A DNA stretch of 58,990 nt, counting the filler. It is 4 parts of 4 records of this genome, joined end to end, with 100 filler letters (N's around TTAATTAATTAA, not from the genome) between each part and the next. Parts side by side here need not be neighbours in the genome. Positions count along the whole stretch, not along the records: positions 1 to 24,564 come from SRR22947725_1345; 3 more parts are not named here. The stretch is one strand, 5' to 3'. This document shows positions 1 through 53,186 of the stretch, piece after piece. The notes under the pieces were generated by a model. That model did no database searches. It was not told the origin of the DNA and saw only the letters and a program-made list of their open reading frames with translations. Every line of letters begins with the position of its first letter. Within the stretch, counting starts at the first letter, position 1. The translations under genes were made by a program, and so were the position numbers.

Positions 1-2
1 CT

Positions 3-983: not shown

Positions 984-984
984 A

Positions 985-1680
985 ATGGCTAATATATTAG
1001 CAATTGATACAACGACATCATCATGCTCTGTAGCTTTAAGCTCAGGAGACGAGCTGATCACAAAATGTAATCTAGCGGAAAGAAGCCATACGAAATTAAT
1101 TCTGCCAATGATTGATGAGGTTTTGAGTAAAAGCAGCTTAACTTTAGATAAATTAGATTACATAGCCTTTACTGCTGGACCAGGATCATTCACGGGTATC
1201 AGGATAGGCTTTGGTATCGTTCAGGGGTTAGCTTATGGAGCTAATATACCTGTCTTACCCGTATCTAGTCTTGAAACACTTGCATATACAGCAATCAGAA
1301 AGCTTAAAATAAAAGAAGATTTGAATATAGTCCCAATAATTGATGCTCGAATGAATGAAATATATTGGGCTAAGTTTTCATATAAATCCGGAATTTTATC
1401 GCGCGACAGTAAAGATTGCGTTACGTCCCCACAATGTTTAAAAGATTCAATAGAATTACCAGTAATTTTGATTGGTAATGTTATCGATTACAATGATCAA
1501 ACATCAGAAAATACTCTAGATTTAGACCATATTGTAATGCTCCCTGAAGCCCAAGATGTGCTTAACATGGCCCAACTGCAGTTGAAAAAAGGATCAGGTA
1601 TTGATGTTCAAGAAGTTAGCCCAATTTACCTAAGGAATAATATCAAATGGAAAAAAAGAAAAAAATTAAGAAAAACATAA
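985..1680 (+). CDS. tsaB: tRNA threonylcarbamoyladenosine biosynthesis protein TsaB
   Basis: Motifs ILAIDT, GPGSFTGIRIG and IDARMNEIY. Start moved to the ATG at 985, just after the hemH stop. Confidence 0.93.
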   Translation: MANILAIDTTTSSCSVALSSGDELITKCNLAERSHTKLILPMIDEVLSKSSLTLDKLDYIAFTAGPGSFTGIRIGFGIVQGLAYGANIPVLPVSSLETLAYTAIRKLKIKEDLNIVPIIDARMNEIYWAKFSYKSGILSRDSKDCVTSPQCLKDSIELPVILIGNVIDYNDQTSENTLDLDHIVMLPEAQDVLNMAQLQLKKGSGIDVQEVSPIYLRNNIKWKKRKKLRKT

Positions 1681-1700
1681 AAGTAGAAGGATAGAATCTA

Positions 1701-2504
1701 GTGGATTTATTGCATTTAATAGCTCTATCTTTAATACAGGGTTTAACTGAATTTTTGCCTATTTCTAGCTCAGCTCATCTAATTTTACCATCTGTGCTGC
1801 TAGGCTGGAGAGATCAAGGTTTAGCTTTTGATATAGCTTTACATATTGGCTCTCTAATCGCTGTAATTATTTATTTATATGATGATATTAAAAAATTATT
1901 ATGTGCTTGGTTGTCTAGCTTCATTAACGGAGGGAACACTGCAGAGAGTAGATTATGCTGGTGTATTATTTTATCAACGATTCCAGCTGGATTGATTGGG
2001 CTAATTTTCGGGAACTTAATTGAATTACATTTGAGAACTCTAAGCATCATAGCAGTTGCAACTATAATTTTTGGATTAGCTCTCGGTTTTGCAGACTACA
2101 CTTCTGTAAAGACAAAAAAATTAAATGAATTTACATGGAAAGCTGCACTCTTGGTTGGACTTGCTCAGACTCTAGCACTCATACCTGGGACATCAAGATC
2201 TGGAATAACTATCACAGCTGCTCTTTTATTGGGATTTGAAAGAACAGCTGCAGCTAAGTTTTCTTTCTTACTGGCTATACCAATTATTTTTTTAAGTGGT
2301 TCATATAAAGTCGCCCAAATAGCCGGCGATACTGCTATCCACTGGGGAGATCTTATGCTCGGAGCATTAATATCCTTTTTAGCTGCGTACACATGTATAA
2401 ATTTATTTGTTATTTTAATCAATAAAGTAGGGATGATACCCTTTGTTATTTATAGGCTCATTTTAGGTATATTCTTGATTATGATCGCAATCGGTACTAA
2501 ATAA
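1701..2504 (+). CDS. uppP: Undecaprenyl-diphosphate phosphatase
   Basis: Motifs QGLTEFLPISSSAHL and ALIPGTSRSGITI; multiple hydrophobic helices. Confidence 0.96.
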   Translation: MDLLHLIALSLIQGLTEFLPISSSAHLILPSVLLGWRDQGLAFDIALHIGSLIAVIIYLYDDIKKLLCAWLSSFINGGNTAESRLCWCIILSTIPAGLIGLIFGNLIELHLRTLSIIAVATIIFGLALGFADYTSVKTKKLNEFTWKAALLVGLAQTLALIPGTSRSGITITAALLLGFERTAAAKFSFLLAIPIIFLSGSYKVAQIAGDTAIHWGDLMLGALISFLAAYTCINLFVILINKVGMIPFVIYRLILGIFLIMIAIGTK

Positions 2505-2523
2505 AAACAATCTGAGAAATTAT

Positions 2524-3828
2524 ATGAATAACTTTAGTTATAGCGAACAACTAATTGAATTTATTAAAAATTCTCCGACATCTTACCATGCTGTAGATAA
2601 TATGAAGAAGTTTTTAAATTCTGCAGGGTTTGAATGTCTAGATGAAAATGAACCTTGGTGTCTAAAAAGTAATAATGGATATTACGTAACTCGTAATGAT
2701 TCATCTATTATCGCGTTTATTGTTGGGGCCAAAGAACCTATAGAAACAGGTATTCGTCTTGTTGGGGCACACACTGACAGCCCTTGCTTAAAAATAAAAC
2801 CTAACCCAGAGATCCACAAAAAAACATATTTTCAATTAGGCGTAGAGGTTTATGGTGGAGTGCTCCTAAATACATGGTTTGATCGTGATCTGTCTATCGC
2901 TGGGAAAGTTACCTTTAAAAATAAAGATAATAAGCTTGCTGTAGCATTAATAGATTTTAAAAAACCAATCGCTGTTATCCCAAGTCTAGCAATTCACTTA
3001 AATAGAGATGCAAATAATGGCCACATAGTTAATCCTGAAACTGGGATGCGTCCAATCTTAACTGTACGCCACACAAATAATGAAGATTTTAGAGATATTT
3101 TGGCTAAAAAACTCGTATCTCAATTATCTTCGACATCAAAATCTGACAACTTGTCAGTAATAGATTACGATCTTTCCTTTTATGATACTCAGCCACCAGG
3201 TTTAATCGGGCTTAAAAAAGACTTCATATCTAGCGCAAGACTCGATAATCTTTTAAGTTGCTTTGCTGGTGTTCAGGCAATCATCAGAACTAATAAACAA
3301 GTAACTAGTATGCTTGCCTGCTATGATCATGAGGAAGTTGGAAGCACCTCTGCTATAGGTGCAAATGGAGCATTTATGGAATCAGTGCTCAATCGGCTTT
3401 TTGATCAGGCCGAGACTAAGTCCCGTGTCGTTGCAAACTCAATGCTTATTTCTACTGATAATGCACATGGCGTTCATCCCAATTTTTTAGATAAACATGA
3501 TGAAAATCATTCTCCTATTATAAACAACGGGCTCGTAATAAAAGTTAACGCCAACCAGCGTTATGCTACCGACAGTTTGACATCTTCATTACTGAAAAAC
3601 TTATGTAATGATATCAGTATCCCAACACAATCTTTTGTTAATAGAGCTGACATGTCATGCGGGAGCACTATTGGACCTATCACAGCAGCAAATATTGGTA
3701 TAAAAACTATTGACATAGGCGTTCCTACATTTGCCATGCACTCTATAAGGGAAATTGCAGGTAAAGAAGATGCTTTTTACTTGTTTCAAATGCTGAATAA
3801 GTTCTTGGATACAGAAAAATTACAATGA
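2524..3828 (+). CDS. apeB: M18 family (aspartyl) aminopeptidase
   Basis: Metal-ligand motifs GAHTDSP, RLDNL, DHEEVGS, DNAHGVHPNF and MHSIRE. Confidence 0.9.
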   Translation: MNNFSYSEQLIEFIKNSPTSYHAVDNMKKFLNSAGFECLDENEPWCLKSNNGYYVTRNDSSIIAFIVGAKEPIETGIRLVGAHTDSPCLKIKPNPEIHKKTYFQLGVEVYGGVLLNTWFDRDLSIAGKVTFKNKDNKLAVALIDFKKPIAVIPSLAIHLNRDANNGHIVNPETGMRPILTVRHTNNEDFRDILAKKLVSQLSSTSKSDNLSVIDYDLSFYDTQPPGLIGLKKDFISSARLDNLLSCFAGVQAIIRTNKQVTSMLACYDHEEVGSTSAIGANGAFMESVLNRLFDQAETKSRVVANSMLISTDNAHGVHPNFLDKHDENHSPIINNGLVIKVNANQRYATDSLTSSLLKNLCNDISIPTQSFVNRADMSCGSTIGPITAANIGIKTIDIGVPTFAMHSIREIAGKEDAFYLFQMLNKFLDTEKLQ

Positions 3829-3945
3829 GGCCCTTTATTGCAAAAGTATAGCCGAAAATTGCAGTGCTCATTTTATGATTATAAAATACTTTTTACGCCC
3901 AATAAAAAGCTATAATCTTTATATTTATCTTAAACAGGATTTTAG

Positions 3946-4980
3946 ATGGAAGTTAAATCGAAAAACGTCTCGAATAGGGTGCTTACAGGAATAACTACAA
4001 CAGGAACACCTCATTTGGGTAACTATGTGGGTGCTATTCGACCTGCGATAGAAGCTAGTAAAGAAGAGAATGTTGATAGCTTCTTCTTCCTTGCGGATTT
4101 TCATGCAATGATAAAGTGCCAAGATCCCAACGTGGTGCATCAATCAACAAAAGAAATTGCTGCAACATGGTTAGCACTTGGTTTAGATCCCAATAATGTA
4201 ACATTCTACCGACAATCTGATATTCCCGAAATACCCCAGTTATGTTGGTACTTGATGTGCGTGGCCCCGAAAGGACTTATGAACAGAGCACATGCATATA
4301 AAGATGCGGTCCAAAAAAATATTGATTCTGGTGAAGATAATGATTTTGGAGTAGCTATGGGTTTGTACTCATATCCAATTCTGATGGCAGCAGACATACT
4401 CATGTTTAATGCTACCAAAGTTCCAGTTGGAAAAGATCAAGTTCAGCACATAGAAATGACCAGAGATATAGCTCAACGCTTTAATTATCTTTATGGTAAA
4501 CAGTTCTCTTTACCGCAAGCTGTCGTTAACGACCAAATCTCACTCTTACAAGGCACAGACGGTAGAAAAATGAGTAAGAGTTACGGAAATACTATTCCGC
4601 TGTTCTTATCTGAAAAACAGCTAAGAAAGCAAATTAATAAAATTAAAACAAATCTCCTAGAGCCTGGAGAGCCGAAAGATCCAGACTCTTCTGTAGTGTT
4701 CCAAATCTGGAGAGCGTTTGCTTCACCAGATCAAATTAGCTATATGCGAGAATCATTTAGAAATGGAATTTCATGGGGGGATGCAAAAAAGCAACTTTTT
4801 GAGCTTGTTAATGCGGAGCTTCAAAAACCGAGAATTCTTTATAATGAGCTACTAGAGTCTCCTGATTATATTGAGTCCATATTATGCAAAGGAGCCATAA
4901 AAGCTAGAAATCATAGCGCATCATTCTTAAAAAAAATCAACATTAGTATGGGGCTACAATCACTTGAAATAAGAAACTAG
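3946..4980 (+). CDS. trpS: Tryptophan--tRNA ligase
   Basis: Motifs HLGN (HIGH-like), KMSKS, YPILMAADIL and VPVGKDQ. Confidence 0.96.
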   Translation: MEVKSKNVSNRVLTGITTTGTPHLGNYVGAIRPAIEASKEENVDSFFFLADFHAMIKCQDPNVVHQSTKEIAATWLALGLDPNNVTFYRQSDIPEIPQLCWYLMCVAPKGLMNRAHAYKDAVQKNIDSGEDNDFGVAMGLYSYPILMAADILMFNATKVPVGKDQVQHIEMTRDIAQRFNYLYGKQFSLPQAVVNDQISLLQGTDGRKMSKSYGNTIPLFLSEKQLRKQINKIKTNLLEPGEPKDPDSSVVFQIWRAFASPDQISYMRESFRNGISWGDAKKQLFELVNAELQKPRILYNELLESPDYIESILCKGAIKARNHSASFLKKINISMGLQSLEIRN

Positions 4981-5015
4981 AGGGATTGCCAATAGTTTCG
5001 AGCTCGGAAAACTAG

Positions 5016-6311
5016 CTAGTAAAGTCTATTGATGACTTTTATAATTCCATTGGTTAATTTTTTTAGATCCTCAGACGAGATATTATAAGGAGGCATTAAA
5101 TATATTCTTTTATCAAAAGGCCTTATCCATATACCTTCGGAAACGAACTCTTTTTGTATTTTACCAACATCAATTTTTTCAAACATCTCAACAACGCCAA
5201 TCGCCCCCAAACATCTGACATCTTTTACACTACGATGCTCGTCTAGACCTGAAAGCTGATCTTTTAACTGGGTGTTGATTCTTTTAATGGTTGTCTGCCA
5301 ATCAGTATCTAAAAGTAAGTCGATACTAGCATTGGCAACAGAGCAAGCTAGAGGATTTCCCATATAGGTGGGTCCATGCATAAAAACACCTGAACCTCCT
5401 GAGCATATAGTGTTACTTATCTTGCTCGTACAAAGTGTTGCTGCTAGAGTCATGTAGCCTCCTGTTAATGCCTTGCCAAGGCATAAGATATCGGGACTTG
5501 TATCTGACCACTCGCATGCAAATAACTTGCCTGTGCGACCGAAGCCTGTAGCAATTTCATCTGCAATCAACAAAACATCATAACTGTCACACAGTTTTCG
5601 AATTTCCTGCATATAAAATGGAGAATAAAAATTTAACCCTCCGGCACCCTGCATTACTGGCTCAATAATTACAGCTGCTATATTTTGGGAGTTTGCTTCT
5701 AATTTCGATTTAACGTCATATATATATCTATCTTCCCAGGCATCATGGAAACCACAAATAGGTGCTTCTGCAAAAATTTGCTTATCAAGAGTATGGTTAA
5801 AAAGGGAATGCATTCCATTTACTGGATCACAGACAGACATAGCTCCTAATGTATCGCCGTGATACCCCTTTTTAAAGCTGAGAAACCGAGACTTCTCAAA
5901 ACGCTCTTGAGATGACCAAAATTGTAGGGCCATCTTAAGAGCCACCTCTACACTCACTGATCCAGAATCTGACAGAAACACCTTATCTAGACCATCAGGA
6001 GTAATGTCAACTAAAGTCTTACAAAGAGTAGCGGCAGGCTCATGCGTAATACCTCCAAACATGACATGAGAAACCTTGCCTATCTGATCTATCAAAGCTT
6101 TATTTAACGCAGGATGGTTATAACCATGGATAGCTGACCACCATGAAGACATGCCGTCTATCAATTCTGTGCCATCAGATAATTTTAATCGGACTCCAGA
6201 GGCACTCACGACCTGGTATGCTGGTATAGGTTTTGTTAAAGAAGAGTAGGGATGCCATATATGATTCTTATCAATAATAGCAACCTGCTCTGGTGTTAAA
6301 GGCTTTGTCAT
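5016..6311 (-). CDS. bioA: Adenosylmethionine--8-amino-7-oxononanoate aminotransferase
   Basis: Motifs IWHPY, DGMSSWW, GYHGDT, DEIATGFGRTG and CLGKALTGG (PLP lysine). ATG at 6311 chosen as start. Confidence 0.95.
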   Translation of the reverse strand: MTKPLTPEQVAIIDKNHIWHPYSSLTKPIPAYQVVSASGVRLKLSDGTELIDGMSSWWSAIHGYNHPALNKALIDQIGKVSHVMFGGITHEPAATLCKTLVDITPDGLDKVFLSDSGSVSVEVALKMALQFWSSQERFEKSRFLSFKKGYHGDTLGAMSVCDPVNGMHSLFNHTLDKQIFAEAPICGFHDAWEDRYIYDVKSKLEANSQNIAAVIIEPVMQGAGGLNFYSPFYMQEIRKLCDSYDVLLIADEIATGFGRTGKLFACEWSDTSPDILCLGKALTGGYMTLAATLCTSKISNTICSGGSGVFMHGPTYMGNPLACSVANASIDLLLDTDWQTTIKRINTQLKDQLSGLDEHRSVKDVRCLGAIGVVEMFEKIDVGKIQKEFVSEGIWIRPFDKRIYLMPPYNISSEDLKKLTNGIIKVINRLY

Positions 6312-6404: not shown

Positions 6405-7088
6405 TTATTTGCCTCCATTCATTTCAGACCATCCATTCGGATCGTTTAAGTACTCTTCAATCGTCAGAATTGATGACTCGTCTATATAACTAGTATCTCT
6501 GCATACAGATAAAACATCTTTCCATGTCGTAAGGAAATGTAACCTTATATCATTTTTAGCAAGTATTTTTTTTGTGTCAGGAAAAATATCGTAAAAAAAG
6601 AGGACAAAGGTATCGGTAACTTCTGCACCGGCCTCTCGAAGAGCATTACAAAACTTAATTTTACTACCTCCATCTGTAGTTAAATCCTCGACTAAGAGAA
6701 CCTTGGACCCTTCTGTGATATGACCTTCTATTTGCGCATCCTTACCAAATCCTTTTGGTTTCTTTCTTACATACTGCATTGGCAGAGAAAGCCTTTCTGA
6801 AAGCCAAGCAGCAAAGGGTATACCAGCTGTTTCTCCACCAGCTATAGCATCTATAGACTCAAAGCCAATATCTCTCAGCACCACGGAAGCTCCAAAATCC
6901 ATAAGAGCCGACCTAACTCTAGGGTAGGATATTATCTTTCTACAGTCGATATAGACTGGACTTGCTTTTCCAGATGTCAGAATATAAGGATCACTTGGCC
7001 TAAAATTGATTGCCCCAATCTCTATTAACATTTTAGCGCTCAAGGATGCTATAAGTTTTTTATCAGGGAAGCTATTAAATGACATCAC
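6405..7088 (-). CDS. pyrE: Orotate phosphoribosyltransferase (SPVYIDCR type, alphaproteobacterial-like)
   Basis: Motifs [13 protein letters not shown] and [10 protein letters not shown], plus the PRPP loop [12 protein letters not shown]. Confidence 0.93.
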
Positions 7089-7148
7089 TACTCCAGAACA
7101 AGAATTAAAAAATTTACATACTTAATATTGCCAGAATAGGCTAGTTTT

Positions 7149-7166
7149 ATCTATGTATACATAGAT
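7149..7166. promoter_or_regulatory. Perfect 18-bp palindrome, candidate operator in the divergent pyrE/rhodopsin intergenic region
   Basis: ATCTATGTATACATAGAT is its own reverse complement. Function is inferred only. Confidence 0.4.
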
Positions 7167-7340
7167 GAAGTTCATAATTTAAGTAAATTCTTTATTTTAG
7201 ATGATAATGATTACCATCTTTTATTAAAATTAACTGGTGTGTCTGGCCTGCAGCCCTGAAGATTCAATAATAAACAGGTATTTAATTTCATTAAATATCA
7301 ATTATATGTAATTTTATATTAGTTTTTTAGCAAAAATCTA

Positions 7341-7369
7341 TTGACTAAAAGGTCTTCATTGTTCAAATT
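7341..7369 (+). promoter_or_regulatory. Candidate sigma70 promoter for the proteorhodopsin gene
   Basis: TTGACT at 7341-7346, a 16-17 bp spacer, then TG-n-TCAAAT/CAAATT as a weak (extended) -10. RBS AGGAGA lies just before ATG 7516. Confidence 0.35.
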
Positions 7370-7515
7370 AGACAGGTGATTCCTTTAGGCAAACAATTTG
7401 TCTTGCAAAGAAAGGCTCATTTAAGTAGTAATTTGAAGCAGGCGTTAAGACTTGCAAGCTTTAATATTTACATTAATGTGAAAATAAAACTTAATAAAAG
7501 TAAAAGGAGAGAAAC

Positions 7516-8211
7516 ATGGAAACGACAGGTTTAAATCCTAGTGATTATACAGGAGTCAGTTTCTGGATTATATCCGCAGCAATGGTTGCGGCAACTTACT
7601 TTTTCACTGTTGAACGCGATCGCGCAGAAGGCAAGTGGAAAACATCTTTAACCGTTGCGGCGATGGTAACTGGTATTGCAGCGATTCACTATTTCTACAT
7701 GCGAGGGGTTTGGGTATCAACAGGTGCAAGCCCGACAGTCTTCCGCTATGTCGATTGGTTGTTAACTGTACCACTGCAGATTGTCGAGTTTTTCTTGATT
7801 CTTTCTGCTATAGCTGTAGTTCGTGCTGCTTTATTCTGGAAGCTGTTAATTGCATCCGTTGTGATGCTAGTTGGCGGATATCTCGGTGAAGTTGGAGCTA
7901 TGTCCTATTGGCCAGCATTCGCAATTGGTATGGCTGGTTGGATATATATCATCTACGAAATCTTCGTTGGTGAAGCTAGTCAAATCAGCGCAGCCCAAGG
8001 TACTGAAGCAAGTAAAACTGCCTTCAATGCACTGCGTTTAATTGTAACTGTTGGGTGGTCAATCTATCCCATAGGTTATATCGTAGGTGCTGGTGCAGGT
8101 GGTGATGCTGCATCTAACCTCAACCTTGTATACAACCTTGCAGACTTCGTTAACAAGATTGCATTCGGTGTTGTTATTTGGGTAGCAGCTACATCTTCGT
8201 CTAAGGCTTAA
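7516..8211 (+). CDS. Proteorhodopsin, DTE proton pump, Gln at spectral-tuning site (blue-absorbing type), no signal peptide
   Basis: Seven TM helices. Helix C RYVDWLLTVPLQIVE gives D80/T84/Q88/E91 (D97/T101/Q105/E108 in GPR numbering). H58 corresponds to H75. Helix G ADFVNK carries the retinal-binding Lys. Confidence 0.96.
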   Translation: METTGLNPSDYTGVSFWIISAAMVAATYFFTVERDRAEGKWKTSLTVAAMVTGIAAIHYFYMRGVWVSTGASPTVFRYVDWLLTVPLQIVEFFLILSAIAVVRAALFWKLLIASVVMLVGGYLGEVGAMSYWPAFAIGMAGWIYIIYEIFVGEASQISAAQGTEASKTAFNALRLIVTVGWSIYPIGYIVGAGAGGDAASNLNLVYNLADFVNKIAFGVVIWVAATSSSKA

Positions 8212-8242
8212 TAACCTGTAGTTCGAATATCAAGTAGCAAGT

Positions 8243-8288
8243 TTGGCGTTATAGGGCGATATATTTAGTCCTGTAACGCCAATTTTTT
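8243..8288 (+). terminator. Intrinsic terminator after proteorhodopsin
   Basis: 15-bp stem TTGGCGTTATAGGGC / GTCCTGTAACGCCAA (two G-U pairs) followed by T6. Confidence 0.75.
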
Positions 8289-8367
8289 ATAATATCTTCT
8301 CAATTTTTCGTAATTTGTATTTAAGAGGGTGCTGTAAAAAATTATAGTTTTTTAAGGGGAGAAAAGA

Positions 8368-9111
8368 ATGGAATTAAGTGATTACAATCTCGTCTTTAAT
8401 TCATTGTCCTTTGCTATTGCAACATTTGGAGCAGCTACAGTATTTATGTTTGCTCAGCGTAGCCAAGTTGCTCCAGCATATAAAACAGCACTTACGCTAT
8501 CAGGCTTAGTATGCCTAATTGCCTTCTATCATTATGTCAGAATGTTTGAAAGCTTTGAGCATGCATATACCCTTAAAGATGGAACAGTGATTGCTACTGG
8601 CTCAGCATTCAACGATGCATATCGTTATGTTGACTGGTTACTAACTGTGCCACTGCTTTTACTAGAACTTGTCCTTGTGATGAGATTGAGTAAGAAAGAT
8701 ACTTATTCAAAAGGCATCAAGCTAGCAGTCGCTTCAGCATTAATGGTTGTTCTAGGTTACCCAGGCGAAGTTGCCGCTACTGGAGAGGAGCGTTGGTTGT
8801 GGTGGACTGCTGCAATGATCCCATTTTTTTACATTGTAAAAGAATTGATTATAGGTTTAGGTGCCTCAATAAACTCTCAACCCACTAGTGTTAGAGGATT
8901 GGTAGCTAATGCAAGAACTTTAACTATACTTTCTTGGTGCTTCTACCCAATAGTCTTTATTCTACCAATGCTTGGCATAGGTGCCTTAGAGCTTGGTAAA
9001 ATTAATGCTGCTGTTCAAGTGGGTTATACAATTGCAGATATTGTTGCTAAAGCAGGTTTCGGTGTTATGATCTATATGATTGCTCAACGTAAATCTGATG
9101 CTGGCGCTTAA
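8368..9111 (+). CDS. Xanthorhodopsin-like rhodopsin, DTE proton pump, Leu at tuning site, Trp at carotenoid-antenna window
   Basis: Seven TM helices. XR-family signatures YHYVRMFESF, FNDAYRYVDWLLTVPLLLLE (D89/T93/L97/E100), LGYPGE, SWCFYPI and QVGYTIADIVAK (retinal Lys). RBS AAGGGGAG. Confidence 0.93.
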   Translation: MELSDYNLVFNSLSFAIATFGAATVFMFAQRSQVAPAYKTALTLSGLVCLIAFYHYVRMFESFEHAYTLKDGTVIATGSAFNDAYRYVDWLLTVPLLLLELVLVMRLSKKDTYSKGIKLAVASALMVVLGYPGEVAATGEERWLWWTAAMIPFFYIVKELIIGLGASINSQPTSVRGLVANARTLTILSWCFYPIVFILPMLGIGALELGKINAAVQVGYTIADIVAKAGFGVMIYMIAQRKSDAGA

Positions 9112-9130
9112 GTAGTAGAAAAAATACAAG

Positions 9131-9160
9131 AAAAAACGCGCCTTATTGGCGCGTTTTTTT
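9131..9160 (+). terminator. Intrinsic (potentially bidirectional) terminator after the xanthorhodopsin-like gene
   Basis: AAAAAA-CGCGCC-TTATT-GGCGCG-TTTTTTT. Confidence 0.85.
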
Positions 9161-9184
9161 ATACTGAGATATATGAGAGGGCCT

Positions 9185-10123
9185 ATGAAATATTATATGC
9201 CTCCAGAGGCAGATGAATGTCTTCATCTTGTAAAAGAGGAATTTGCAAGAAGTTTTGATATAGAAGAATCATTCATATCTGATTGGCTTAAACATCACAA
9301 TAAGTCGAAAGGAAAGTGGATAAGGGCCCGTTTGGCACTTGCTTCAGGTGGCTTGCTAGGGCTTTCAAGTCAAACGTATATCAAATGGGCAGTTGTGTGT
9401 GAACTGATTCATAGTGCCTCCCTTTTGCATGACGATATATGTGATAAAGACTCAATGAGGCGAGGAAAAAAGTCTCTCTGGAAAGAGTTCGGTATACCTG
9501 CAGCTGTTTGTACGGGAGATTACTTAATTGCAGAGTCATTTAGAAAAATTACTGAAATAGAGCAAGGGTGGCATCAAAATATCCTATTAAAACTACTATC
9601 ATGCTCAGTAAAAGAGATAATATTTGGCCAATCACTAGACGTCAGTTTAGATCATTTAACGCTAACTAAAGATCAGTGTCGAAAGATAGCTATTGATAAA
9701 ACTGCTCCATTAATCGCGTTACCTATGATGGGTATGTTTCGCTGCAAGGAGCTCACAGAAGATGAATGTGTTGCCCTAAAAGAGATCTCAAACGAACTTG
9801 GTTTTGCTTATCAATATTTAAACGATATAGAAAATATAATCGGCTTTGAGCAGGAAATATCGTCAGATTTTCTAAAGGGTCATCCAAATTTTATGGTGAT
9901 TCGAATACTTGAGAATTTATCAGCTCTAGAGAAAAAAGTCGTATTTAAACAGCCAAGCAAATTTAATGATTTTATTTCTGAAAGAAATTTTATTCAGTCA
10001 CAAGAAGAGATAGTCGCTATATTAAAAAATGCTATGTTAAATAATCATCGATTACCTATAATTATTCAACCAATCATCGAGTCACTAAAAGATGAAATAA
10101 TTAAAAGGCTTAACTTGATATGA
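9185..10123 (+). CDS. crtE: Polyprenyl (geranylgeranyl) diphosphate synthase
   Basis: Motifs GKWIR, ELIHSASLLHDDICDKDSMRRG, GQSLD and DKTA. First gene of the crt-blh cluster. ATG 9185 follows GAGAGG, whereas the ORF-track start at 9146 lies inside the terminator. Confidence 0.85.
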   Translation: MKYYMPPEADECLHLVKEEFARSFDIEESFISDWLKHHNKSKGKWIRARLALASGGLLGLSSQTYIKWAVVCELIHSASLLHDDICDKDSMRRGKKSLWKEFGIPAAVCTGDYLIAESFRKITEIEQGWHQNILLKLLSCSVKEIIFGQSLDVSLDHLTLTKDQCRKIAIDKTAPLIALPMMGMFRCKELTEDECVALKEISNELGFAYQYLNDIENIIGFEQEISSDFLKGHPNFMVIRILENLSALEKKVVFKQPSKFNDFISERNFIQSQEEIVAILKNAMLNNHRLPIIIQPIIESLKDEIIKRLNLI

Positions 10124-11589
10124 AAAGAGTTGCTATTATCGGAGGAGGTTTTGGTGGCATTGCTGCCGCGATCAGATTGAGAGCAAGAGGGAATAAGGTA
10201 ACCATATATGAACGTCTAGATAAATTAGGGGGCAGGGCACAAGTTTTCCAAAGAAATGGCTATCTCCATGATGCTGGACCTACTGTAATAACAGCGCCTA
10301 ATCTATTTTATGAGCTATTTGAATTATTTGATGAAAGCTTAGAAGATCATCTTGAGTTCAAACCCTTAAACACTTGGTATAGATTCCATTTCAACGATCA
10401 AACAGAGTTTGATTATGGATCCGATCGAGAAAAAATGCTTAGCCAAATTGAAGAATTATCTCCTGAGGATGTTTCAGGCTACTTAGACATGCTCAAAGAA
10501 TCAAAAGAAATATTTAAGCTCGGATACGAAAAGTTAGCGGGACATCCATTTCACAGACTAACAACAATGCTCCGTTATGCCCCAGATATTATCAAAATGA
10601 AAGGCTACCGTTCTGTTTATACCTTTGTATCTAAACATATAAAGCACCCAAATCTACGTCAAGCATTTTCAATTCAACCACTCCTAGTTGGAGGCAATCC
10701 TTTTACAACATCCTCGATATACTCACTTATTCATGCGCTAGAACAAAAATGGGGTATTTTCTTTTGTATGGGCGGGACAGGAAAACTTGTACTTGAACTT
10801 GAAAAATTAATGTTAAGGAACGGCATTGAGATAAATTATTCATGTGATGTGAGTCATTTTTCTACATCAAAAAAATTAATTACAAGAGTCAACTTTACAA
10901 ATGAAGAAAGCAAGGAATTTGATTATATTGTAAGTAATGCTGACCCAATACAAGTATCCAAAGAATTGCTAAAGAATGAAAAAATATCTCTTCATAATCG
11001 ACTAATAAATAAATATGCGAAGCACTCGATGGGCTTATTTGTATTATTTTTTGGGTCAACAAAATGCTATGAAAATGTTGCTCATCATACGATTTGGATG
11101 GGTCCTAGATACAAAGAGTTACTTGAAGATATATTTGACAACCATCATTTATCAGAGGATTTTTCTATATATCTTCACAGGCCTACCTGTACAGATAAAT
11201 CTTTCGCTCCAGATAAACATGATAGCTTCTATGCACTTGTGCCAGTTCCAAATCTTAAAGGTGGGCAAAATTGGTCTGCAATAAAAGAAGAATTCTCCAA
11301 AAGAATTTTAGGTGCTCTAGACAAGACAATCATGCCGGGTATTAATGACAATGCTAGAGAAATTTTTTGTATGACCCCTGAAGATTTTAAAACTAACTAC
11401 AGAACACCATTCGGAAGTGGATTTTCCATCGCACCAATCTTAACTCAGTCTGCGTGGTTCAGGACACACAATCAAGACGATAGATATAAAAATTTATTCT
11501 ATGTAGGAGCCGGCACCCATCCTGGAGCAGGAGTTCCCGGAGTCATAAATTCAGCGAAAGTAGTAGAAAGAATTCTTTATCATGACTAA
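10120..11589 (+). CDS. crtI: Phytoene desaturase
   Basis: FAD motif IIGGGFGG, DAGPTVIT, QSAWFR and YVGAGTHPGAGVPGV. ATGA overlap with crtE. Confidence 0.96.
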   Translation: MKRVAIIGGGFGGIAAAIRLRARGNKVTIYERLDKLGGRAQVFQRNGYLHDAGPTVITAPNLFYELFELFDESLEDHLEFKPLNTWYRFHFNDQTEFDYGSDREKMLSQIEELSPEDVSGYLDMLKESKEIFKLGYEKLAGHPFHRLTTMLRYAPDIIKMKGYRSVYTFVSKHIKHPNLRQAFSIQPLLVGGNPFTTSSIYSLIHALEQKWGIFFCMGGTGKLVLELEKLMLRNGIEINYSCDVSHFSTSKKLITRVNFTNEESKEFDYIVSNADPIQVSKELLKNEKISLHNRLINKYAKHSMGLFVLFFGSTKCYENVAHHTIWMGPRYKELLEDIFDNHHLSEDFSIYLHRPTCTDKSFAPDKHDSFYALVPVPNLKGGQNWSAIKEEFSKRILGALDKTIMPGINDNAREIFCMTPEDFKTNYRTPFGSGFSIAPILTQSAWFRTHNQDDRYKNLFYVGAGTHPGAGVPGVINSAKVVERILYHD

Positions 11590-12469
11590 TTATTCCCATG
11601 TGATGAAGAATCATGGAAAAACTTTTTTTTGGGCTACAGCATTTCTCGAAAAGAAAACTGCTAATAATTTATACTCGGTATACGCATTTTGCCGCCGTAT
11701 TGATGATTTGATAGATAAAAATCCAAACCATGACACCTCATACAAAGATTTTTTTACGGCAAAAAATGCATGGGATAAAAATAAATATACCGATGCATTT
11801 GATGAGCTAAAAAATATAGATAAAGAGTTTTTACCAAGGGAAGATATTCTTAAAGAATTCTTTATAGGGCAAACGAGCGATATTACCCATAAACAACCTG
11901 ATAATATCAGTGAACTTCTTATTTATTGCTATCGAGTAGCTGGTGCTGTTGGTCTGATGGTTTGCGACGTCTTAGGAATTAAAGATCCACGCTTAAAATA
12001 TTTTGCTATTGATCTAGGTATTGCAATGCAGCTCACGAATATATGCCGTGATATAAATGAAGATGCTTTGATAAATAGGGTTTATTTACCAAAAGATATG
12101 ATCAATATAGAGCTTGAAAATTACAAAAACCCGACAAAAGAAGAGATAAAAAAAATTAATTCAGCAAGAAATGCTTTATTGAGTTTGGCAAATAAATATT
12201 ACAAGAGTGGGGAAAAGGGTATAGCTCATCTACCATCTAGAACAGCAAGAGCGGTTCTCATTGCATCAAGGCTTTATCAAAATATAGGGATAAAAATTTT
12301 AAATAGAGAAGTTTCTTATGAATCATATCGAGTTTATCTGAATGTATTTGAAAAACTGCTCATAACAATAAAGTTAATATTTAAACCAAATATAAAGAAA
12401 AATATTGAAAATCATAATGAAGTGTTACATTCATCTTTAATAAAACTTCCTGATGTCCATATAAAATGA
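11582..12469 (+). CDS. crtB: Phytoene synthase
   Basis: Motifs GKTFFWA, YAFCRRIDDLID, YCYRVAGAVG and LGIAMQLTNICRDINED..RVYLP. Confidence 0.95.
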   Translation: MTNYSHVMKNHGKTFFWATAFLEKKTANNLYSVYAFCRRIDDLIDKNPNHDTSYKDFFTAKNAWDKNKYTDAFDELKNIDKEFLPREDILKEFFIGQTSDITHKQPDNISELLIYCYRVAGAVGLMVCDVLGIKDPRLKYFAIDLGIAMQLTNICRDINEDALINRVYLPKDMINIELENYKNPTKEEIKKINSARNALLSLANKYYKSGEKGIAHLPSRTARAVLIASRLYQNIGIKILNREVSYESYRVYLNVFEKLLITIKLIFKPNIKKNIENHNEVLHSSLIKLPDVHIK

Positions 12470-13599
12470 AAAAAATATACGATTTAATAGTAATCGGAGC
12501 AGGGTTGTCGAGCCTAATGTTTTTGAAGCAATACCTAAAAAAAACTAATGATCAAAAAATTCTTCTGCTCGAACAAAAAGATAGTATTAATAGTGATCAA
12601 ACATTTTGTGTTTGGGAAGGGCCAGGGCTACCGAATGTTACAGATGAGTTTCAATTAAACCCAAAGAAAATTTGGAAAAAAATAGTTTTAAATAGTCTTA
12701 ACTATGAAATCAAAAGAGATACCCAGCTATACAGCTATGTTTGTTTTGATGGTAAAGAAGCACTCGAAAGCTTATCCAGCTCATGTAATGAGAAAGTTAC
12801 AACTATAAAAAATGAAAAGGTCACTCAAATAGTCAGTGAAAACAATATTCAAGTTGTTACCACTAACAGTAACACTCATTTCGGTAAAATCATTGTTGAT
12901 AGTAGAAATAATATTAAACAGCAAGAAATAAAATCACCATTAATTCATCAAGCTTTCGTCGGGAGCGAAATAGAACTTACAAAAGAACGATTTAATCCTG
13001 ATGAAGTGACACTGATGTCATTTATAAGAAAGAAAAATCAGATTGAATTCGTATATATACTACCTTTTACAAAAAAGAGGGCACTTGTTGAAACAACAGT
13101 TTTTTCAATAGAACCTGAGCTTAAAGCTATAAAAAATACACATAAAGAAATCCTCAAAACCTATGAGCCTTACAAAGTAATAAGGCAAGAAAAGGCAATT
13201 ATCCCTATGGCTGTTATTTCTCCGGTTAGAGAAAAAGGAATACTCAAGATTGGTATAGGGGGAGGAATGATGAGAGCCTCTTCAGGTTATTCAATGAGGA
13301 GGATTGCTAATTGGGCAATCAAGATGGGGGATTACAGGCTAAATGAAAATAATATCTCTACATTCAGGTATCACTCTAATAAGTGGTTAAATTACCTCGA
13401 TAAAATCTTCTTAAATGTTATCCTCAAATACCCAGAAAAAGGTCCATATTTGTTCATGATGCTATTTAGGCGAGCAAAAATGCCCCCATTAATAAGATTC
13501 CTATCAGATAAACCATCGGGTGCTGATTTAATAAATATACTATTGTGTATGCCTAAAAGGCTAATGCTGAAAGGTTTAGCAAAAAAGAAAAATGACTAA
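12466..13599 (+). CDS. crtY: Lycopene beta-cyclase
   Basis: N-terminal IGAGLS Rossmann motif, FVYILPF..RALVETT and E.AIIPM; positioned between crtB and blh. Confidence 0.88.
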   Translation: MKKIYDLIVIGAGLSSLMFLKQYLKKTNDQKILLLEQKDSINSDQTFCVWEGPGLPNVTDEFQLNPKKIWKKIVLNSLNYEIKRDTQLYSYVCFDGKEALESLSSSCNEKVTTIKNEKVTQIVSENNIQVVTTNSNTHFGKIIVDSRNNIKQQEIKSPLIHQAFVGSEIELTKERFNPDEVTLMSFIRKKNQIEFVYILPFTKKRALVETTVFSIEPELKAIKNTHKEILKTYEPYKVIRQEKAIIPMAVISPVREKGILKIGIGGGMMRASSGYSMRRIANWAIKMGDYRLNENNISTFRYHSNKWLNYLDKIFLNVILKYPEKGPYLFMMLFRRAKMPPLIRFLSDKPSGADLINILLCMPKRLMLKGLAKKKND

Positions 13600-14488
13600 A
13601 GTTAATAAACATCAAATTTATTTCATTATTTTTTCCGCGATAACAATTCTCCTATGCGCTATGTCTGGCATTCTTATGATAAACAAGCCAGAAGTTAAAC
13701 TAAATATAAGCATAATAATGGTTATTTCTATGAGCCTTATAGGTACTATAGGTATAGCACATGGTGCACTAGATGGGAAAATTATATGGAAGCATTCAGC
13801 TCGAACAAGTGCTAGGATAAAGTTATATTTACTTTATATACTCTTTACTTCAAGTGGTGCGTTAATTTGGTTTTTTTATCCATTTGGTGGGTTAGTTTTA
13901 CTACTGATAATGTCATCAGTACATTTTGGCGTATCTGATTTAAAGTTCATAAATGAAATGAATTTTGCTTCTAAGGTTTGCTGGGGTGTTGCTATGGCAT
14001 TCTTGCCGATAGCCTTCAAACCAAATTTAGTAATATCTCTATTTTACGATTTAACACAAGTTAGGATACAACCAGAAACATTTGGTGCTATAAATATTAT
14101 AGTATTAATTTGTATAATCAATTTTTGTGTAAGTTTGTATAAAATTGCACAAGAGAGGAAAAAGAAAGGGAAGAATATATTTGAGTTAAAGCTGTTGAGT
14201 GCTGAAATGACGGTATTAATTTGTCTAGCTTATTTCTTAAGCCCACTTATCTGGTTCTCGATATATTTTTGTGGATTACACGGTATACGAGCACTTATAG
14301 ATAGTGATTTTAGGATATTTCCGGATATATTATGGTTGACACTATTTACTGCGCCTATTTCAATAATAATCTTTTTATTCAAATGGGAATATAGTCTAAA
14401 TAGCCTATTAATTATCTTTCCGGTATTAGCAAGTTTGACCATTGCGCACATGCTTCTACCTAAATTAAGAGAAATTGTAAAACCTTAG
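13592..14488 (+). CDS. blh: Beta-carotene 15,15'-dioxygenase (Brp/Blh family)
   Basis: Membrane protein with His motifs GIAHGALD, SVHFG, FCGLHG and LTIAH; last gene of the retinal cluster. Confidence 0.9.
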   Translation: MTKVNKHQIYFIIFSAITILLCAMSGILMINKPEVKLNISIIMVISMSLIGTIGIAHGALDGKIIWKHSARTSARIKLYLLYILFTSSGALIWFFYPFGGLVLLLIMSSVHFGVSDLKFINEMNFASKVCWGVAMAFLPIAFKPNLVISLFYDLTQVRIQPETFGAINIIVLICIINFCVSLYKIAQERKKKGKNIFELKLLSAEMTVLICLAYFLSPLIWFSIYFCGLHGIRALIDSDFRIFPDILWLTLFTAPISIIIFLFKWEYSLNSLLIIFPVLASLTIAHMLLPKLREIVKP

Positions 14489-14499
14489 AAAAAAATATT

Positions 14500-15153
14500 T
14501 TAGTCTGGCTGTTTAATGTATCTCAAATAGGCTAGTTTTTTATCAATTAATCCGTATTTGTTTGCAGCGTCGTCATCGCTTATAGATAAAGGAATAATAA
14601 CATCTTGACCGTTAAGCCAATTTGCTGGGGTAGCTATAATATGTTTATCAGTTAACTGTATAGCGTCTAAGGCTCTTAAAATCTCAGAAAAATTTCGGCC
14701 TACAGCCATAGGGTAAGAGAGTGTTAACCTTATTTTTTTGTCTGGTCCTATTATAAATACGGTTCTTACAGTGGCGCTATCCTGAGCTGTTCGTCCGTCA
14801 GGCAAATACGCGTCTGAAGGGAACATGTTGTAGAGTTTTGAAACAGTCAAAGAGGTATCTTCGATAATAGGGAAGGCAACTTTAGTGGATGATATAGACT
14901 CAATATCTTCCTTCCATTTTATATGATCTTCAATGCTATCTACAGACACTCCGATGACTTTAGTATTTCTATTTTTAAACTCTAACGACAGGGCTGCTAA
15001 AACTGAGAATTCTGTTGTACAGACTGGTGTGAAATCTTTCGGGTGTGAGAACAGAATAGCGTAGCTTTTACCAATCCACTTATGGAACTTAATTAGGCCA
15101 TCTGTAGAATTAGACTCGAAGTTAGGAGCAATATCATTTATAAGTAGAGACAT
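14500..15153 (-). CDS. 1-Cys peroxiredoxin (Prx6 family)
   Basis: Peroxidatic motif FSHPKDFTPVCTTE, plus GRNFSEILRALDA and ATPANW. GAGG RBS lies upstream of ATG 15153/15156. Confidence 0.93.
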   Translation of the reverse strand: MSLLINDIAPNFESNSTDGLIKFHKWIGKSYAILFSHPKDFTPVCTTEFSVLAALSLEFKNRNTKVIGVSVDSIEDHIKWKEDIESISSTKVAFPIIEDTSLTVSKLYNMFPSDAYLPDGRTAQDSATVRTVFIIGPDKKIRLTLSYPMAVGRNFSEILRALDAIQLTDKHIIATPANWLNGQDVIIPLSISDDDAANKYGLIDKKLAYLRYIKQPD

Positions 15154-15260
15154 CATGATCCTCATTTAATATTAAATTTATTAATTTTAGATTTGTTGAA
15201 CGAAGTATAACAAATAATCGGTAGTTTAAATTTTAATAAAAAATATTATATCAAGTTTTA

Positions 15261-15288
15261 ATTTAACATAATATACATTATGCGCAGT
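15261..15288 (-). other. dif: dif site (XerC/XerD chromosome dimer resolution site)
   Basis: Minus strand reads ACTGCGCATAA-TGTATA-TTATGTTAAAT versus E. coli dif GGTGCGCATAA-TGTATA-TTATGTTAAAT: 26/28 identical, with a perfect XerD arm and spacer. It is intergenic, and gene orientation converges here. Confidence 0.93.
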
Positions 15289-15291: not shown

Positions 15292-16662
15292 TTATTTAAG
15301 TGTCACGAACTCTTCCGCTGCGGTTGGGTGTATAGCGATTGTATTATCAAAGTCTTTTTTGGTAGCACCGGACTTGATTGCTATAGCTAAGCCCTGAATT
15401 ATTTCTCCTGCATGATCACCAACCATATGGCAACCGACTACCTTGTTAGTACTTTTTACAACAATCAACTTCATAAAGACTTTCGTTAAGGCGCCCCCTA
15501 ATGTCTGTTTCATCGGTTTAAAGTGGGTTTTATATATTTGTAGATCATCCTGAAACTTAATTAAGGCTTCTTCCTCTGTATAACCAACTGAGGCTGAATT
15601 TGGTGTACTAAATATTGCTGTAGGTATATTGTAGTAATTAAAAAAAGGTTTCTTACCTTCAGTAAAATAAGCGGATAAAGCCATAGCCTCTGCAATTGCG
15701 ACAGGTGTTAACTCTTTTTTTCCTATTACATCACCCAAAGCAAATATACTTTTAATTGAGGTTCTGTAGTATTCATCAACCTTAATTGTACCGTCTCCAT
15801 TAAGAACTATATTTAACTCATCGAGCCATAATTTACTTATATTCGGTACTCTTCCAGTTGCGCACATGATTAGATCAGCCTGGATTTCACTACTAGATTT
15901 TATTTTAATTGAGTACTTATGCTGATTACTTTTTTTTGATAACTCAGTTAACATATTCTCATTTATAGACTCAACCTCTTTCGAGAAATATGTTTTAACA
16001 CCATGATTTATATATTCTTCTTTAATTTTATTTCTTATATCTATATCAAATCCTTTTAAAAACAAAGGACCTCGATGCATTAGGTGTGTGTCTACACCCA
16101 TCCCATTAAAGATCCCAGCAAATTCGACCGCTATATAGCCTCCGCCTACTATCAAAATCTTTTTTGGTAATGATTTTAAGAAAAAGGCTTCATTTGAGGT
16201 AATTGTGTGTTCGTTTCCTGGGAAATTAGGCACATATGGCTTTCCCCCAGTAGCAATTAATATATTTTTTGCACTATAGGTTTTTTTCTCAACCTTTACT
16301 GAATGTGGTCCAGTAATAAACGCACTACCCTTTATAATTTTTACGCCAGACTTTTCTAAAAGATTTTTATATATTCCATTTAGTCGACCTATTTCTTTAT
16401 TTTTATTTCTTATTAGCCTTTGCCATTCAAAGCTACTGCCCTCAATACTCCACCCGAAACCTTCGGATTCTTTAAATTTTTGACCATACTCCGATGCATA
16501 TACAAATAATTTTTTTGGTATACAACCAACGTTCACACAGGTACCACCAAGTTCTTGAGATTCTACTATTGCAACTTTCAGACCTTTGCTAGCACATATT
16601 CGCGCGCACCTAACACCACCAGACCCTGCTCCGATTATAAGAAGCTCATAATCATATCGCAT
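15292..16662 (-). CDS. gor: Glutathione-disulfide reductase
   Basis: GAGSGG, redox-active GGTCVNVGCIPKK, GGGYIAVEFA and C-terminal IHPTAAEEF. Confidence 0.95.
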   Translation of the reverse strand: MRYDYELLIIGAGSGGVRCARICASKGLKVAIVESQELGGTCVNVGCIPKKLFVYASEYGQKFKESEGFGWSIEGSSFEWQRLIRNKNKEIGRLNGIYKNLLEKSGVKIIKGSAFITGPHSVKVEKKTYSAKNILIATGGKPYVPNFPGNEHTITSNEAFFLKSLPKKILIVGGGYIAVEFAGIFNGMGVDTHLMHRGPLFLKGFDIDIRNKIKEEYINHGVKTYFSKEVESINENMLTELSKKSNQHKYSIKIKSSSEIQADLIMCATGRVPNISKLWLDELNIVLNGDGTIKVDEYYRTSIKSIFALGDVIGKKELTPVAIAEAMALSAYFTEGKKPFFNYYNIPTAIFSTPNSASVGYTEEEALIKFQDDLQIYKTHFKPMKQTLGGALTKVFMKLIVVKSTNKVVGCHMVGDHAGEIIQGLAIAIKSGATKKDFDNTIAIHPTAAEEFVTLK

Positions 16663-16672: not shown

Positions 16673-18061
16673 TCAGTTATTTTTTGATTTAAACCATGAC
16701 AATTTTTCTTGTAACAACACTACTGAACCAATAATAATTAATGTTGGGGCTTTAGCACCTGCAGCTCTGACCATCTTCGGTAATCCCTGAAGGTCGGAAA
16801 CATAAGTTTTTTGATTTCTAGTAGTACCCTTTTCTATTAATGCAGCTGGAGTATCTGCATTCATACCAAATAGTATTAATTTTTCACAGATTATTTCTAG
16901 CCCATTCAAACCCATATAGAAAACTAAAGTTTGATTTGGTGCGGTTAGCTCCAACCAATTGAGATCTAAATAATTATTTTTCTGATGACCCGCTATAAAA
17001 CGAACTGACTGCGCATAATCCCTATGAGTTAAAGGTATTCCTGCATAACTTGCACAACCCGAAGCAGCGGTTATACCTGGTACCACTTGAAACGGAATAC
17101 CACAATCTCTTAAGTGCTCTATCTCTTCACCACCGCGACCAAATATGAACGGATCTCCACCTTTTAAGCGTAAAACACGATTTCCTGTTTCTGCATATTC
17201 AACTAATTTTTTATTGATATTTTCTTGCGTTACAGGATGATCACCTGCTGTTTTTCCTACGAACACTAGCTCGGCATCTCTTCGAACAAGAGCTAAGACC
17301 TCTTTTGATACTAGTCTATCATATAAGACTATATCTGCTTTTTGCATTAACCTTAATGCTCTAAAAGTCAATAAATCTGGATCTCCTGGCCCCCCACCTA
17401 CGAGATAAACTTCACCTAAATTTTTAGGTACATCATCTTCAATTTTCTTCTGAAGTTTAGCTTCTGCGACAAGATTTTTTTCTGCATACACCAACTCTGG
17501 TATTTCACTAGAAAATATCTCTTCCCAAAAAGCTTTACGGCTATTCGAATCAATAATTTTTTTCTTCACAAGTGGGCGAAATTTGCGGGCTAAATCGGCT
17601 AACCTGCCAAATCCTGACGGTATGATACTTTCTAATTTTGTTCTTAACATTCTTACTAAAACGGGAGCGGCTCCCCCGCTACTTATAGCTATCAATATTG
17701 GGTTTCTATCTACAATAGAAGGGAAAATAACTGTACATAATTCTGGTTGATCGACTACATTCACTGGAATATTTAAGGATTTAGCGTGGCTGGATACCTG
17801 GATATTAATCTTTTTTTTATTTGTAGCAGAAATGACTAGACAAGCATCTTTTAAGTCATTGTTTTCAAAAGGTTTAATGTATAACTTTATGGAATGTTTT
17901 TTTGCGAGGTCTTGGATTCTACTATCGATATCGGGTGCAATAATATCTATTATTGCACCCGCCTCTAACAATGGACGAATTTTTCTCAGCGCTATAGAGC
18001 CTGCCCCAACAACCACGCAGCGTCTATTTTTTATATTGTGAAATAAAGGTAAAAAGTCCAT
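16673..18061 (-). CDS. cysG: Siroheme synthase (multifunctional)
   Basis: N-terminal dehydrogenase/chelatase part (VVGAG, VNVVDQPE) fused to a methyltransferase part (VGGGPGDPDLLT, RLKGGDPFIFGRGGEE). Confidence 0.95.
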   Translation of the reverse strand: MDFLPLFHNIKNRRCVVVGAGSIALRKIRPLLEAGAIIDIIAPDIDSRIQDLAKKHSIKLYIKPFENNDLKDACLVISATNKKKINIQVSSHAKSLNIPVNVVDQPELCTVIFPSIVDRNPILIAISSGGAAPVLVRMLRTKLESIIPSGFGRLADLARKFRPLVKKKIIDSNSRKAFWEEIFSSEIPELVYAEKNLVAEAKLQKKIEDDVPKNLGEVYLVGGGPGDPDLLTFRALRLMQKADIVLYDRLVSKEVLALVRRDAELVFVGKTAGDHPVTQENINKKLVEYAETGNRVLRLKGGDPFIFGRGGEEIEHLRDCGIPFQVVPGITAASGCASYAGIPLTHRDYAQSVRFIAGHQKNNYLDLNWLELTAPNQTLVFYMGLNGLEIICEKLILFGMNADTPAALIEKGTTRNQKTYVSDLQGLPKMVRAAGAKAPTLIIIGSVVLLQEKLSWFKSKNN

Positions 18062-53185: not shown

Positions 53186-53186
53186 T

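Follow-up and report, generated by a model that had tools for sequence, protein, structure and literature searches.

Xer-exploiting elements such as CTXphi, TLCphi, VGJphi, the gonococcal genetic island (GGI) and EludIMEX-1 reside at dif, carry no integrase of their own, and are present in some bacteria and absent from their relatives. Here, we analyze a stretch of 58,990 nucleotides (the window; positions are counted along its full length) from a marine Porticoccus, in which a cassette of rhodopsin, carotenoid and retinal genes shares all of these traits and lies between the core gene pyrE and a dif site. The original prediction for this locus was that the light-harvesting genes had arrived, or are exchanged, by XerCD recombination at dif, with the terminus as a general hotspot for acquired DNA as the simpler alternative. 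Judged by the size classes of the junctions in related genomes, the hotspot fits better. With a probability of about 0.7, the cassette is a laterally acquired operon in a permissive hotspot flanking dif that has since been inherited vertically, its position not reflecting catalysis by XerCD.

The cassette differs from elements of the CTXphi type in its vertical inheritance, its place on the XerD-arm side of dif, and its lack of a second dif-like site and of phage, replication or transfer genes. The pdif modules of Acinetobacter also hold cargo genes without a recombinase at Xer sites; in the available part of their description (PMC7399989), these modules are plasmid-borne and bracketed by two Xer sites, whereas the window has one chromosomal dif and no second.

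The genes themselves have described counterparts. A proteorhodopsin (PR) arranged with a xantho-like rhodopsin is reported for 'Ca. Methylopumilus' in the accessible portion of PMC6794327, and the dual-rhodopsin cassette of the Methylophilaceae has a gene order (PR, xantho-like rhodopsin, crtE-I-B-Y, blh) identical to that of the window. The Methylophilaceae cassettes belong to hosts of a different taxonomic order and, in three of the five genomes searched, lie 97-120 kb from a dif on the same contig. Within Porticoccus, the part of PMC13714315 that is available describes 'Porticoccus arcticus'/Porticoccus sp. Uisw_050_02, streamlined bacteria with a blue and a green-type pump beside carotenoid genes, judged to have been laterally acquired; a record labelled as a Uisw_050_02 strain (L067) has the same pyrE-cassette-dif-gor layout as the window. 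The GC content given there is 41.5-41.6%, as against ~35% in the window, the organism of which is a different species and has a peroxiredoxin gene (prx) in addition. Since the cassette and its lateral origin are already in print there, the novelty of our results is modest. In the same available part, the account of the two-rhodopsin region mentions neither the insertion site nor dif, and a full-text search of the literature turned up no paper joining proteorhodopsin with a dif site. What is new is the exact insertion site, the later addition of prx, a second location of the cassette in one genome (G020), and the finding that relatives have Xer-exploiting elements at this dif.

A single dif site at the border of the island

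The 28-bp dif site that had been proposed for the right edge of the block (ACTGCGCATAATGTATATTATGTTAAAT) was confirmed. At up to three mismatches, it matches the window once, with no match of any kind in 100 shuffles, and it occurs in exactly one copy in each of the 25 same-genus genomes, where a reversed control gave no matches. At the same threshold it is present in 71 of 121 genomes of the family, covering 15 of 20 genera. The DNA flanking the 28-mer cannot be aligned between species on either side, and its conservation is therefore a property of the site itself. The cumulative GC skew, computed for the window rather than the whole chromosome, has its maximum at 14-15 kb, that is, at dif. 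The ftsK gene lies 5 kb away, with an FtsK_gamma domain detected in 20455-22809, and the nearest genome (G001), the locus of which is essentially identical to the window, encodes exactly two full-length tyrosine recombinases (PF00589, ~301 and ~304 amino acids). By its sequence and setting, 15261-15288 is the working, single-copy chromosomal dif at the replication terminus. The arms are named after the layout of the E. coli site, from which ACTGCGCATAATGTATATTATGTTAAAT presumably differs only in the two outermost bases of the XerC arm.

The original prediction had found no convincing second copy of dif at the left border, and we find none in the window: the best other site in the window, within crtI, scores 18/25, and all 30 shuffles attain 17-19. 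An exact 11-mer of the XerC arm at 17008-17018 (+ strand), within cysG and inverted relative to dif, was rejected as a probable chance match, with agreement at 3 of 6 centre positions and 5 of 11 XerD-arm positions over the full site (17008-17035).

Occupied and empty sites in the genus

The dif loci of 26 same-genus genomes were compared, the flanks being taken from 25 genomes and a 26th. The cassette occupies the interval between pyrE and dif in seven (G001, G003, G008, G019, G024, G025 and G050), while the spacer is empty, with pyrE 144-232 bp from dif, in ten (G005, G006, G009, G010, G011, G014, G016, G017, G020 and G022). A TonB-dependent receptor gene takes the same place in three (G012, G021 and G023), a DUF4202 gene in two (G013 and G018) and unrelated genes in two more (G002 and G015); in the remaining two (G004 and G007) the contig begins at dif. 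Both the empty pyrE-dif-gor locus and the alternative cargo that the original prediction proposed to look for are thus found in relatives. The ten empty loci also show that pyrE, which had been counted as a member of the block, is part of the core flank. The comparison supports an island with its right border coinciding with dif and restricted to one subclade of small genomes. A rhodopsin was detected (with the first rhodopsin, rho1, as the query) in 6 of 35 genus genomes, all of them small, and in none of the genomes of 2.0-2.9 Mb; crtY was detected in two more of five fragmentary genus genomes searched.

The island appears to have grown in two steps. Orthologs of prx (70-100% identity) occur in G001, G024, G019 and G003 only, and the cassette ends 206-213 nt from dif in G008 and G025, and ~265 nt from it in G050, with no prx between. 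Because these three cassettes lack prx, we take prx to be a later insertion, nearer to dif. G020 shows a different arrangement: its trpS-bioA-pyrE-dif-gor locus is empty (L052 contig, 1-5285), and a cassette (rho1-rho2-crtE...) follows a gene for a 2-oxoacid dehydrogenase E2 acyltransferase on a separate contig (L063, 1-3919). In G019, 111 kb separate the ortholog of this acyltransferase gene from dif. The cassette of G020 may have moved or been gained independently, unless the two contigs, both short, were binned together from different strains.

Descent and origin of the cassette

A core tree was built from concatenated trpS, bioA, pyrE, cysG, serS and crcB for 25 rows, using a quick search, Shimodaira-Hasegawa-like approximate likelihood ratio (SH-aLRT) support and midpoint rooting; G015 was left out, being without these genes. 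All cassette carriers in this tree fall in one clade of nine rows (clade A), and the other clade (clade B) consists of 16 larger genomes with no rhodopsin. Within clade A, G020 is basal, followed by (G007,(G008,G025)) and (G003,(G019,(G024,(window,G001)))). Cassette trees were made separately for the 5' half (18 rows) and the 3' half (17 rows), and the Porticoccus rows appear in the same order in both half-trees and in the core tree, with the exception of the partial G020 cassette, which pairs with G003. The congruence of the cassette and core trees argues for one old acquisition followed by vertical descent. The idea of a mosaic cassette, with crtB-crtY-blh nearer to the loci L070 and L071 than to G003 and G008, was dropped, as both half-trees agree.

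The wider relationships were traced among 80 proteorhodopsin loci from many taxa, of which four (L067, L100 and two partial contigs, L068 and L069) are genus records that share the order rho1-rho2-crtE-I-B-Y-blh. This order is also found in eight Methylophilaceae loci (L077, L092, L097, L111, L119, L122, L128 and L146), with 77-82% identity for rho1 and 69-81% for crtI, and in L070 and L071, from assemblies labelled alphaproteobacteria; 66 other loci remain. The other gammaproteobacterial PR loci are without rho2, and their crt genes are 21-54% identical. In both half-trees, one Methylophilaceae cassette is the sister of the Porticoccus cassette clade. By gene order and trees, the window operon belongs to the Methylophilaceae-type dual-rhodopsin cassettes, in which the second rhodopsin stands between PR and the retinal genes.

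The cassettes in L070 (3699-10623, labelled Emcibacteraceae) and L071 (1799-8624, labelled Kordiimonadaceae) contain the seven genes with 60-91% protein identity, and in the trees they are nested within the Porticoccus cassettes. A protein encoded in the flank of L070 reaches no more than 36% identity to anything in the genus, so that this cassette looks like an export to another lineage.

The search for an Xer partner site

If the cassette had been integrated by XerCD, a second dif-like site might be expected at its outer border, and such a site was sought in degenerate-dif scans of the window and of the loci of 25 relatives, other cassette-bearing loci included. No partner site for the cassette was found above chance level. 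In the window, dif itself is the sole match for the XerC arm plus centre at 12/14 or better. For the centre plus XerD arm at 13-14/17, there are 11 scattered matches besides dif in the 59 kb, none of them in the left junction spacer (7089-7515). The best candidate in this spacer, at 7285-7312 (16/25), was rejected: there are 29 such matches in the window against a shuffle mean of 34, and the candidate is not conserved in G019, G024, G008 or G003. Nucleotide similarity between the window and the L070 cassette is confined to 7504-14501, with nothing dif-like alongside.

The same scan, serving as its own positive control, recovered four hybrid sites in G012, G016 and G021. These sites are in direct orientation; their XerC arm and centre are perfect, whereas their XerD arm diverges, and they delimit elements (Table 1) that encode the filamentous-phage replication protein G2P, a Zot-family assembly protein and repressor-like proteins. 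Xer-exploiting elements thus do use this dif in the genus, and filamentous-phage-like elements of this kind are hereby documented in marine Porticoccus. The att sites of TLC, GGI and EludIMEX-1 are of the same type as these hybrid sites, to judge from the available part of PMC5357621. All four hybrid sites lie on the XerC-arm (gor) side of dif, and the cassette lies on the XerD-arm side.

Proximity to dif was rare among the rhodopsin loci surveyed. A dif site was found within 10 kb of PR in 2 of the 80 loci, both from Porticoccus, in a scan for the gamma-type dif that misses alphaproteobacterial types. Considering the lack of a partner site, the congruent trees, the XerD-arm location and this low count, arrival or exchange of the cassette by XerCD recombination is not supported, and for a new mobilisation route for rhodopsins the outcome is mostly negative. 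The original prediction had named trees congruent with the core genes, the lack of a partner site and a breakpoint away from dif as findings that would speak against it; the first two are what we observe, and the border of the island does coincide with dif.

Two further arrangements were noticed around dif. A second direct site on the gor side is found in G002 (L032, dif +523), G004 (L053, +528) and G018 (L045, +539), with a perfect 11-nt XerD arm and no recognisable XerC arm or centre; it is kept in these three related genomes. In G097, from another genus of the family (L161, dif -8293..-148), gor-serS-crcB-lolA-ftsK lie on the XerD-arm side, opposite to the arrangement in the genus of the window.

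Plasticity of the two dif flanks

Size classes, counted as such when more than 300 bp apart, were compared for 12 conserved junctions of the locus. There are five classes for pyrE-dif and seven for dif-gor, and one to three for each of the ten other junctions (three for bioA-pyrE). At least five different cargos occur on the pyrE side of dif and many on the gor side, where they comprise the phage-like elements and glutamine-synthetase-like, oxidase, histidine kinase, MbnB-family, hydrolase and aldolase genes. Replacement of a core gene is seen as well. The gor gene of G024 (L050, dif +397..+1770) is 87% identical to the allele of the clade-B genome G009 and 58% to that of its sister G001, while cysG and serS beyond it keep 95-96% identity to the window. 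An allele has been replaced here, with dif as the boundary; the assembly has 7% contamination and many split genes. The data support the dif flanks as a hotspot, with the gor side partly explained by Xer-exploiting elements, and document them as a plasticity zone of the genus.

How did the cassette come to lie beside dif?

In the reading that we prefer, a 7-kb phototrophy operon with the seven-gene order of the Methylophilaceae type (OM43/Methylopumilus) would have been gained once by lateral transfer, entering the ~200-bp pyrE-dif spacer in the ancestor of the small-genome Porticoccus subclade, and would have been passed on vertically from there, with prx added later between the cassette and dif. 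A streamlined marine bacterium would, in other words, have taken up its light-harvesting genes a single time, as a ready-made operon. The position would be due to the plasticity of the two dif-flanking spacers, the most plastic of the region in this genus; for the pyrE side we infer that the DNA entered by illegitimate or break-associated insertion, near the terminus and at a place where insertions are tolerated. The direction of transfer is likewise inferred. Several points weigh against this account. That the right border of an 8-kb insertion falls within ~100-800 nt of dif is a striking coincidence, and the genus has Xer-exploiting elements that are active at the same site. Of the two insertions, the younger (prx) is the closer to dif and the older (the cassette) the more distant, as expected of arrays formed by repeated integration there, although the array here consists of two items only. 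G020 is empty at dif and has its cassette elsewhere, which implies at least one change of place for the cassette. Moreover, the trees rest on quick searches and midpoint roots, leaving gain versus loss and the donor direction unproven, and a former partner site could have decayed beyond recognition. A rival reading is that a circular DNA with the cassette and a dif-like site was integrated by the host XerCD, the outer site being lost or decaying afterwards so that the cassette became locked in place. This would account for a cassette that abuts dif with no integrase, for the empty sites in relatives, for the XerCD-dependent elements at this dif in G012, G016 and G021, and for the nested order of cassette and prx. 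Nevertheless, we consider it unlikely. In the window, no site other than dif matches XerC arm plus centre at 12/14 or better, the left spacer has no match to centre plus XerD arm at 13-14/17, and the candidate at 7285-7312 is unconserved and does no better than chance. In addition, the cassette lies on the XerD-arm side, in contrast to 4/4 hybrid sites on the XerC-arm side, the arrangement also of the att sites in the available part of PMC5357621, and the similarity to L070 is limited to 7504-14501, while OM43 cassettes are 97-120 kb from dif. A broader version, rather unlikely in our judgement, sees the Porticoccus dif as a two-sided capture platform, at which, in addition to the classical elements on the XerC-arm side, the cargo on the XerD-arm side (the rhodopsin operon, then prx, and a TonB receptor or DUF4202 in other species) entered through XerCD crossover at the universally conserved dif and was locked in place once the outer site was lost. 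Either a circle carrying a full dif would integrate, or an Xer crossover at dif would be paired with a homologous one in a core gene of the flank; the clade-B gor allele of G024 might then be the footprint of an Xer-assisted exchange between species.

It is harder still to see the location as pure coincidence, with the cassette in an intergenic spacer hit at random, which contains dif by chance and has no special permissiveness. One insertion event cannot establish a preference, to be sure, and junctions elsewhere also change in size (bioA-pyrE, with its three classes). But none of the ten other junctions has as many size classes as the two at dif, the pyrE side has received at least five cargos and the gor side many, and prx was gained and gor replaced right at dif, all of which makes coincidence improbable. 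Least credible is a cassette that stood at pyrE-dif in the ancestor of the genus and was later deleted from clade B and from the G020 locus. Under midpoint rooting, a single loss in clade B costs no more steps than a single gain in clade A, and outgroups do not polarise the pyrE-dif state, because pyrE is not beside dif outside the genus (12 outgroup genomes, 8 genera). However, G020 is basal in its clade and empty at dif, so that at least two precise losses would be needed; the window cassette nests among Methylophilaceae cassettes; no rhodopsin lies within -10 to +8 kb of dif in any of the 12 outgroup genomes, which represent 8 other genera of the family; and PR loci elsewhere in the gammaproteobacteria belong to another type. 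Ancestry of this kind is therefore very improbable.

Gene content and layout

The order of the locus is core pyrE, then rho1-rho2-crtEIBY-blh-prx, then dif, then gor-cysG-serS-crcB-lolA-ftsK (Table 1).

Table 1. Coordinates of the features of the window and of the elements at dif in relatives
Feature	Location	Strand or side	Remarks
pyrE, orotate phosphoribosyltransferase	6405..7088	-	PF00156; core left flank, outside island
left junction spacer	7089..7515		motif, palindrome and promoter-like stretch inside
rho1, proteorhodopsin	7516..8211	+	PF01036
rho2, xanthorhodopsin-family	8368..9111	+	PF01036
crtE-like polyprenyl synthase	9146..10123	+	PF00348
crtI, phytoene desaturase	10120..11589	+	PF01593
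crtB, phytoene synthase	11582..12469	+	PF00494
crtY, lycopene cyclase	12466..13599	+	PF05834
blh, beta-carotene 15,15'-dioxygenase	13592..14488	+	PF15461 (BCD); retinal-forming
prx, 1-Cys peroxiredoxin	14500..15165	-	PF00578 + PF10417
chromosomal dif	15261..15288	-	reads ACTGCGCATAATGTATATTATGTTAAAT
dif, XerD arm	15261-15271		prx/cassette-facing
dif, centre	15272-15277		6 bp
dif, XerC arm	15278-15288		gor-facing
gor-like, glutathione-reductase-like disulfide reductase	15292..16662	-	Pfam; core right flank
G012 element	L040, dif +61..+3377	gor side	~3.3 kb, G2P + repressor; hybrid site +3350
G016 element(s)	L043+L147, dif +71..+6053	gor side	two tandem ~3.1-kb copies, G2P each; hybrid sites +2889, +6026
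G021 element	L047+L149, dif +92..+8206	gor side	~8.2 kb, Zot; hybrid site +8179

The two rhodopsins, crtEIBY and blh together make up what is predicted from the gene content to be a complete proteorhodopsin photosystem operon with its retinal pathway. Read from the sequence and its alignment to solved structures, rho1 has the D/T/E motif of a proton pump, Gln at the tuning position (blue type) and DxxxK, and its best solved relatives are proteorhodopsins (281 bits). rho2 has Leu at the tuning position and again DxxxK, with psXR and xanthorhodopsin as its best solved relatives (217-221 bits). All nine genes of the block are rhodopsin, carotenoid, retinal or peroxiredoxin genes, with no replication, packaging or transfer genes and no attP among them. 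The original prediction was right that the block has no integrase or transposase, none being found in 6405-15288 by gene reading or Pfam, and the window contains no tRNA gene. It was right as well in placing core genes directly beyond dif: Pfam and the coordinates uphold the identities of gor, cysG, serS, crcB, lolA and ftsK on that side. The gor gene adjoins dif in clade A and in some other genera, and in the window its stop codon (15292-15294) is 3 nt from the site. Of the two distances given earlier, ~770 bp from the blh stop to dif holds (773 nt), and ~108 bp from the prx start does not, since the ATG at 15165 leaves a gap of 95 nt, or ~105 nt if an internal Met is used.

The left junction contains several short elements. 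The motif TTGCCAGAATAGG lies upstream of pyrE at 7128-7140 and is retained in empty-site relatives too, and the promoter-like ATTGACTAA before rho1 (7340-7348) marks the start of similarity to the G020 cassette. More broadly, TTGCCAGAA(T/C)A (in the region of window 7128-7166) is kept in most pyrE-holding loci of the genus, those with empty sites included, and in clade A the motif upstream of pyrE is followed by a perfect 18-nt palindrome, ATCTATGTATACATAGAT (7149-7166). Motif and palindrome are possibly a regulatory site of pyrE.

The locus in metagenomes

Nineteen runs from 14 studies contain at least 92% of the sequence words of the locus. In two metagenomes, a 21.6-kb contig spans 5000-15288 with 12-15 differences and ends at dif, and the locus is >99.8% conserved. 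Contigs of two metagenomes have their end or start precisely at dif (window 15259-15288), with an overlap of 27-30 nt, and the depth there is ~20x that of the flanks because other organisms share the 30-mer. The conserved dif is thus a cross-species repeat in assembly graphs, and this repeat causes assembled contigs to break at dif; the genus assemblies G004, G007, G010 and G015 are also broken there. Given that the dif 30-mer can break or bridge metagenome assemblies, caution is needed with the genes that assembled genomes show next to dif.

Joints expected from a pyrE-to-dif deletion or from an excised circle were not seen in four runs, two examined as contig sets, which hide rare forms, and two as raw reads at ~1-2x. 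The joints listed from reads have short sides of 21-39 nt and no match to the island borders. In run X1, one contig of low depth (4.1 vs ~70) runs from 9136, shortly past the end of rho2, back to 7089, where the spacer next to pyrE begins, with 29 additional letters in between. This joint could reflect a rare variant in which the rho1-rho2 segment is duplicated, or be a stray match.

Elsewhere in the window, 45000-49000 and 53000-57000 have a G+C content of 0.24-0.25, compared with ~0.35 in the rest.

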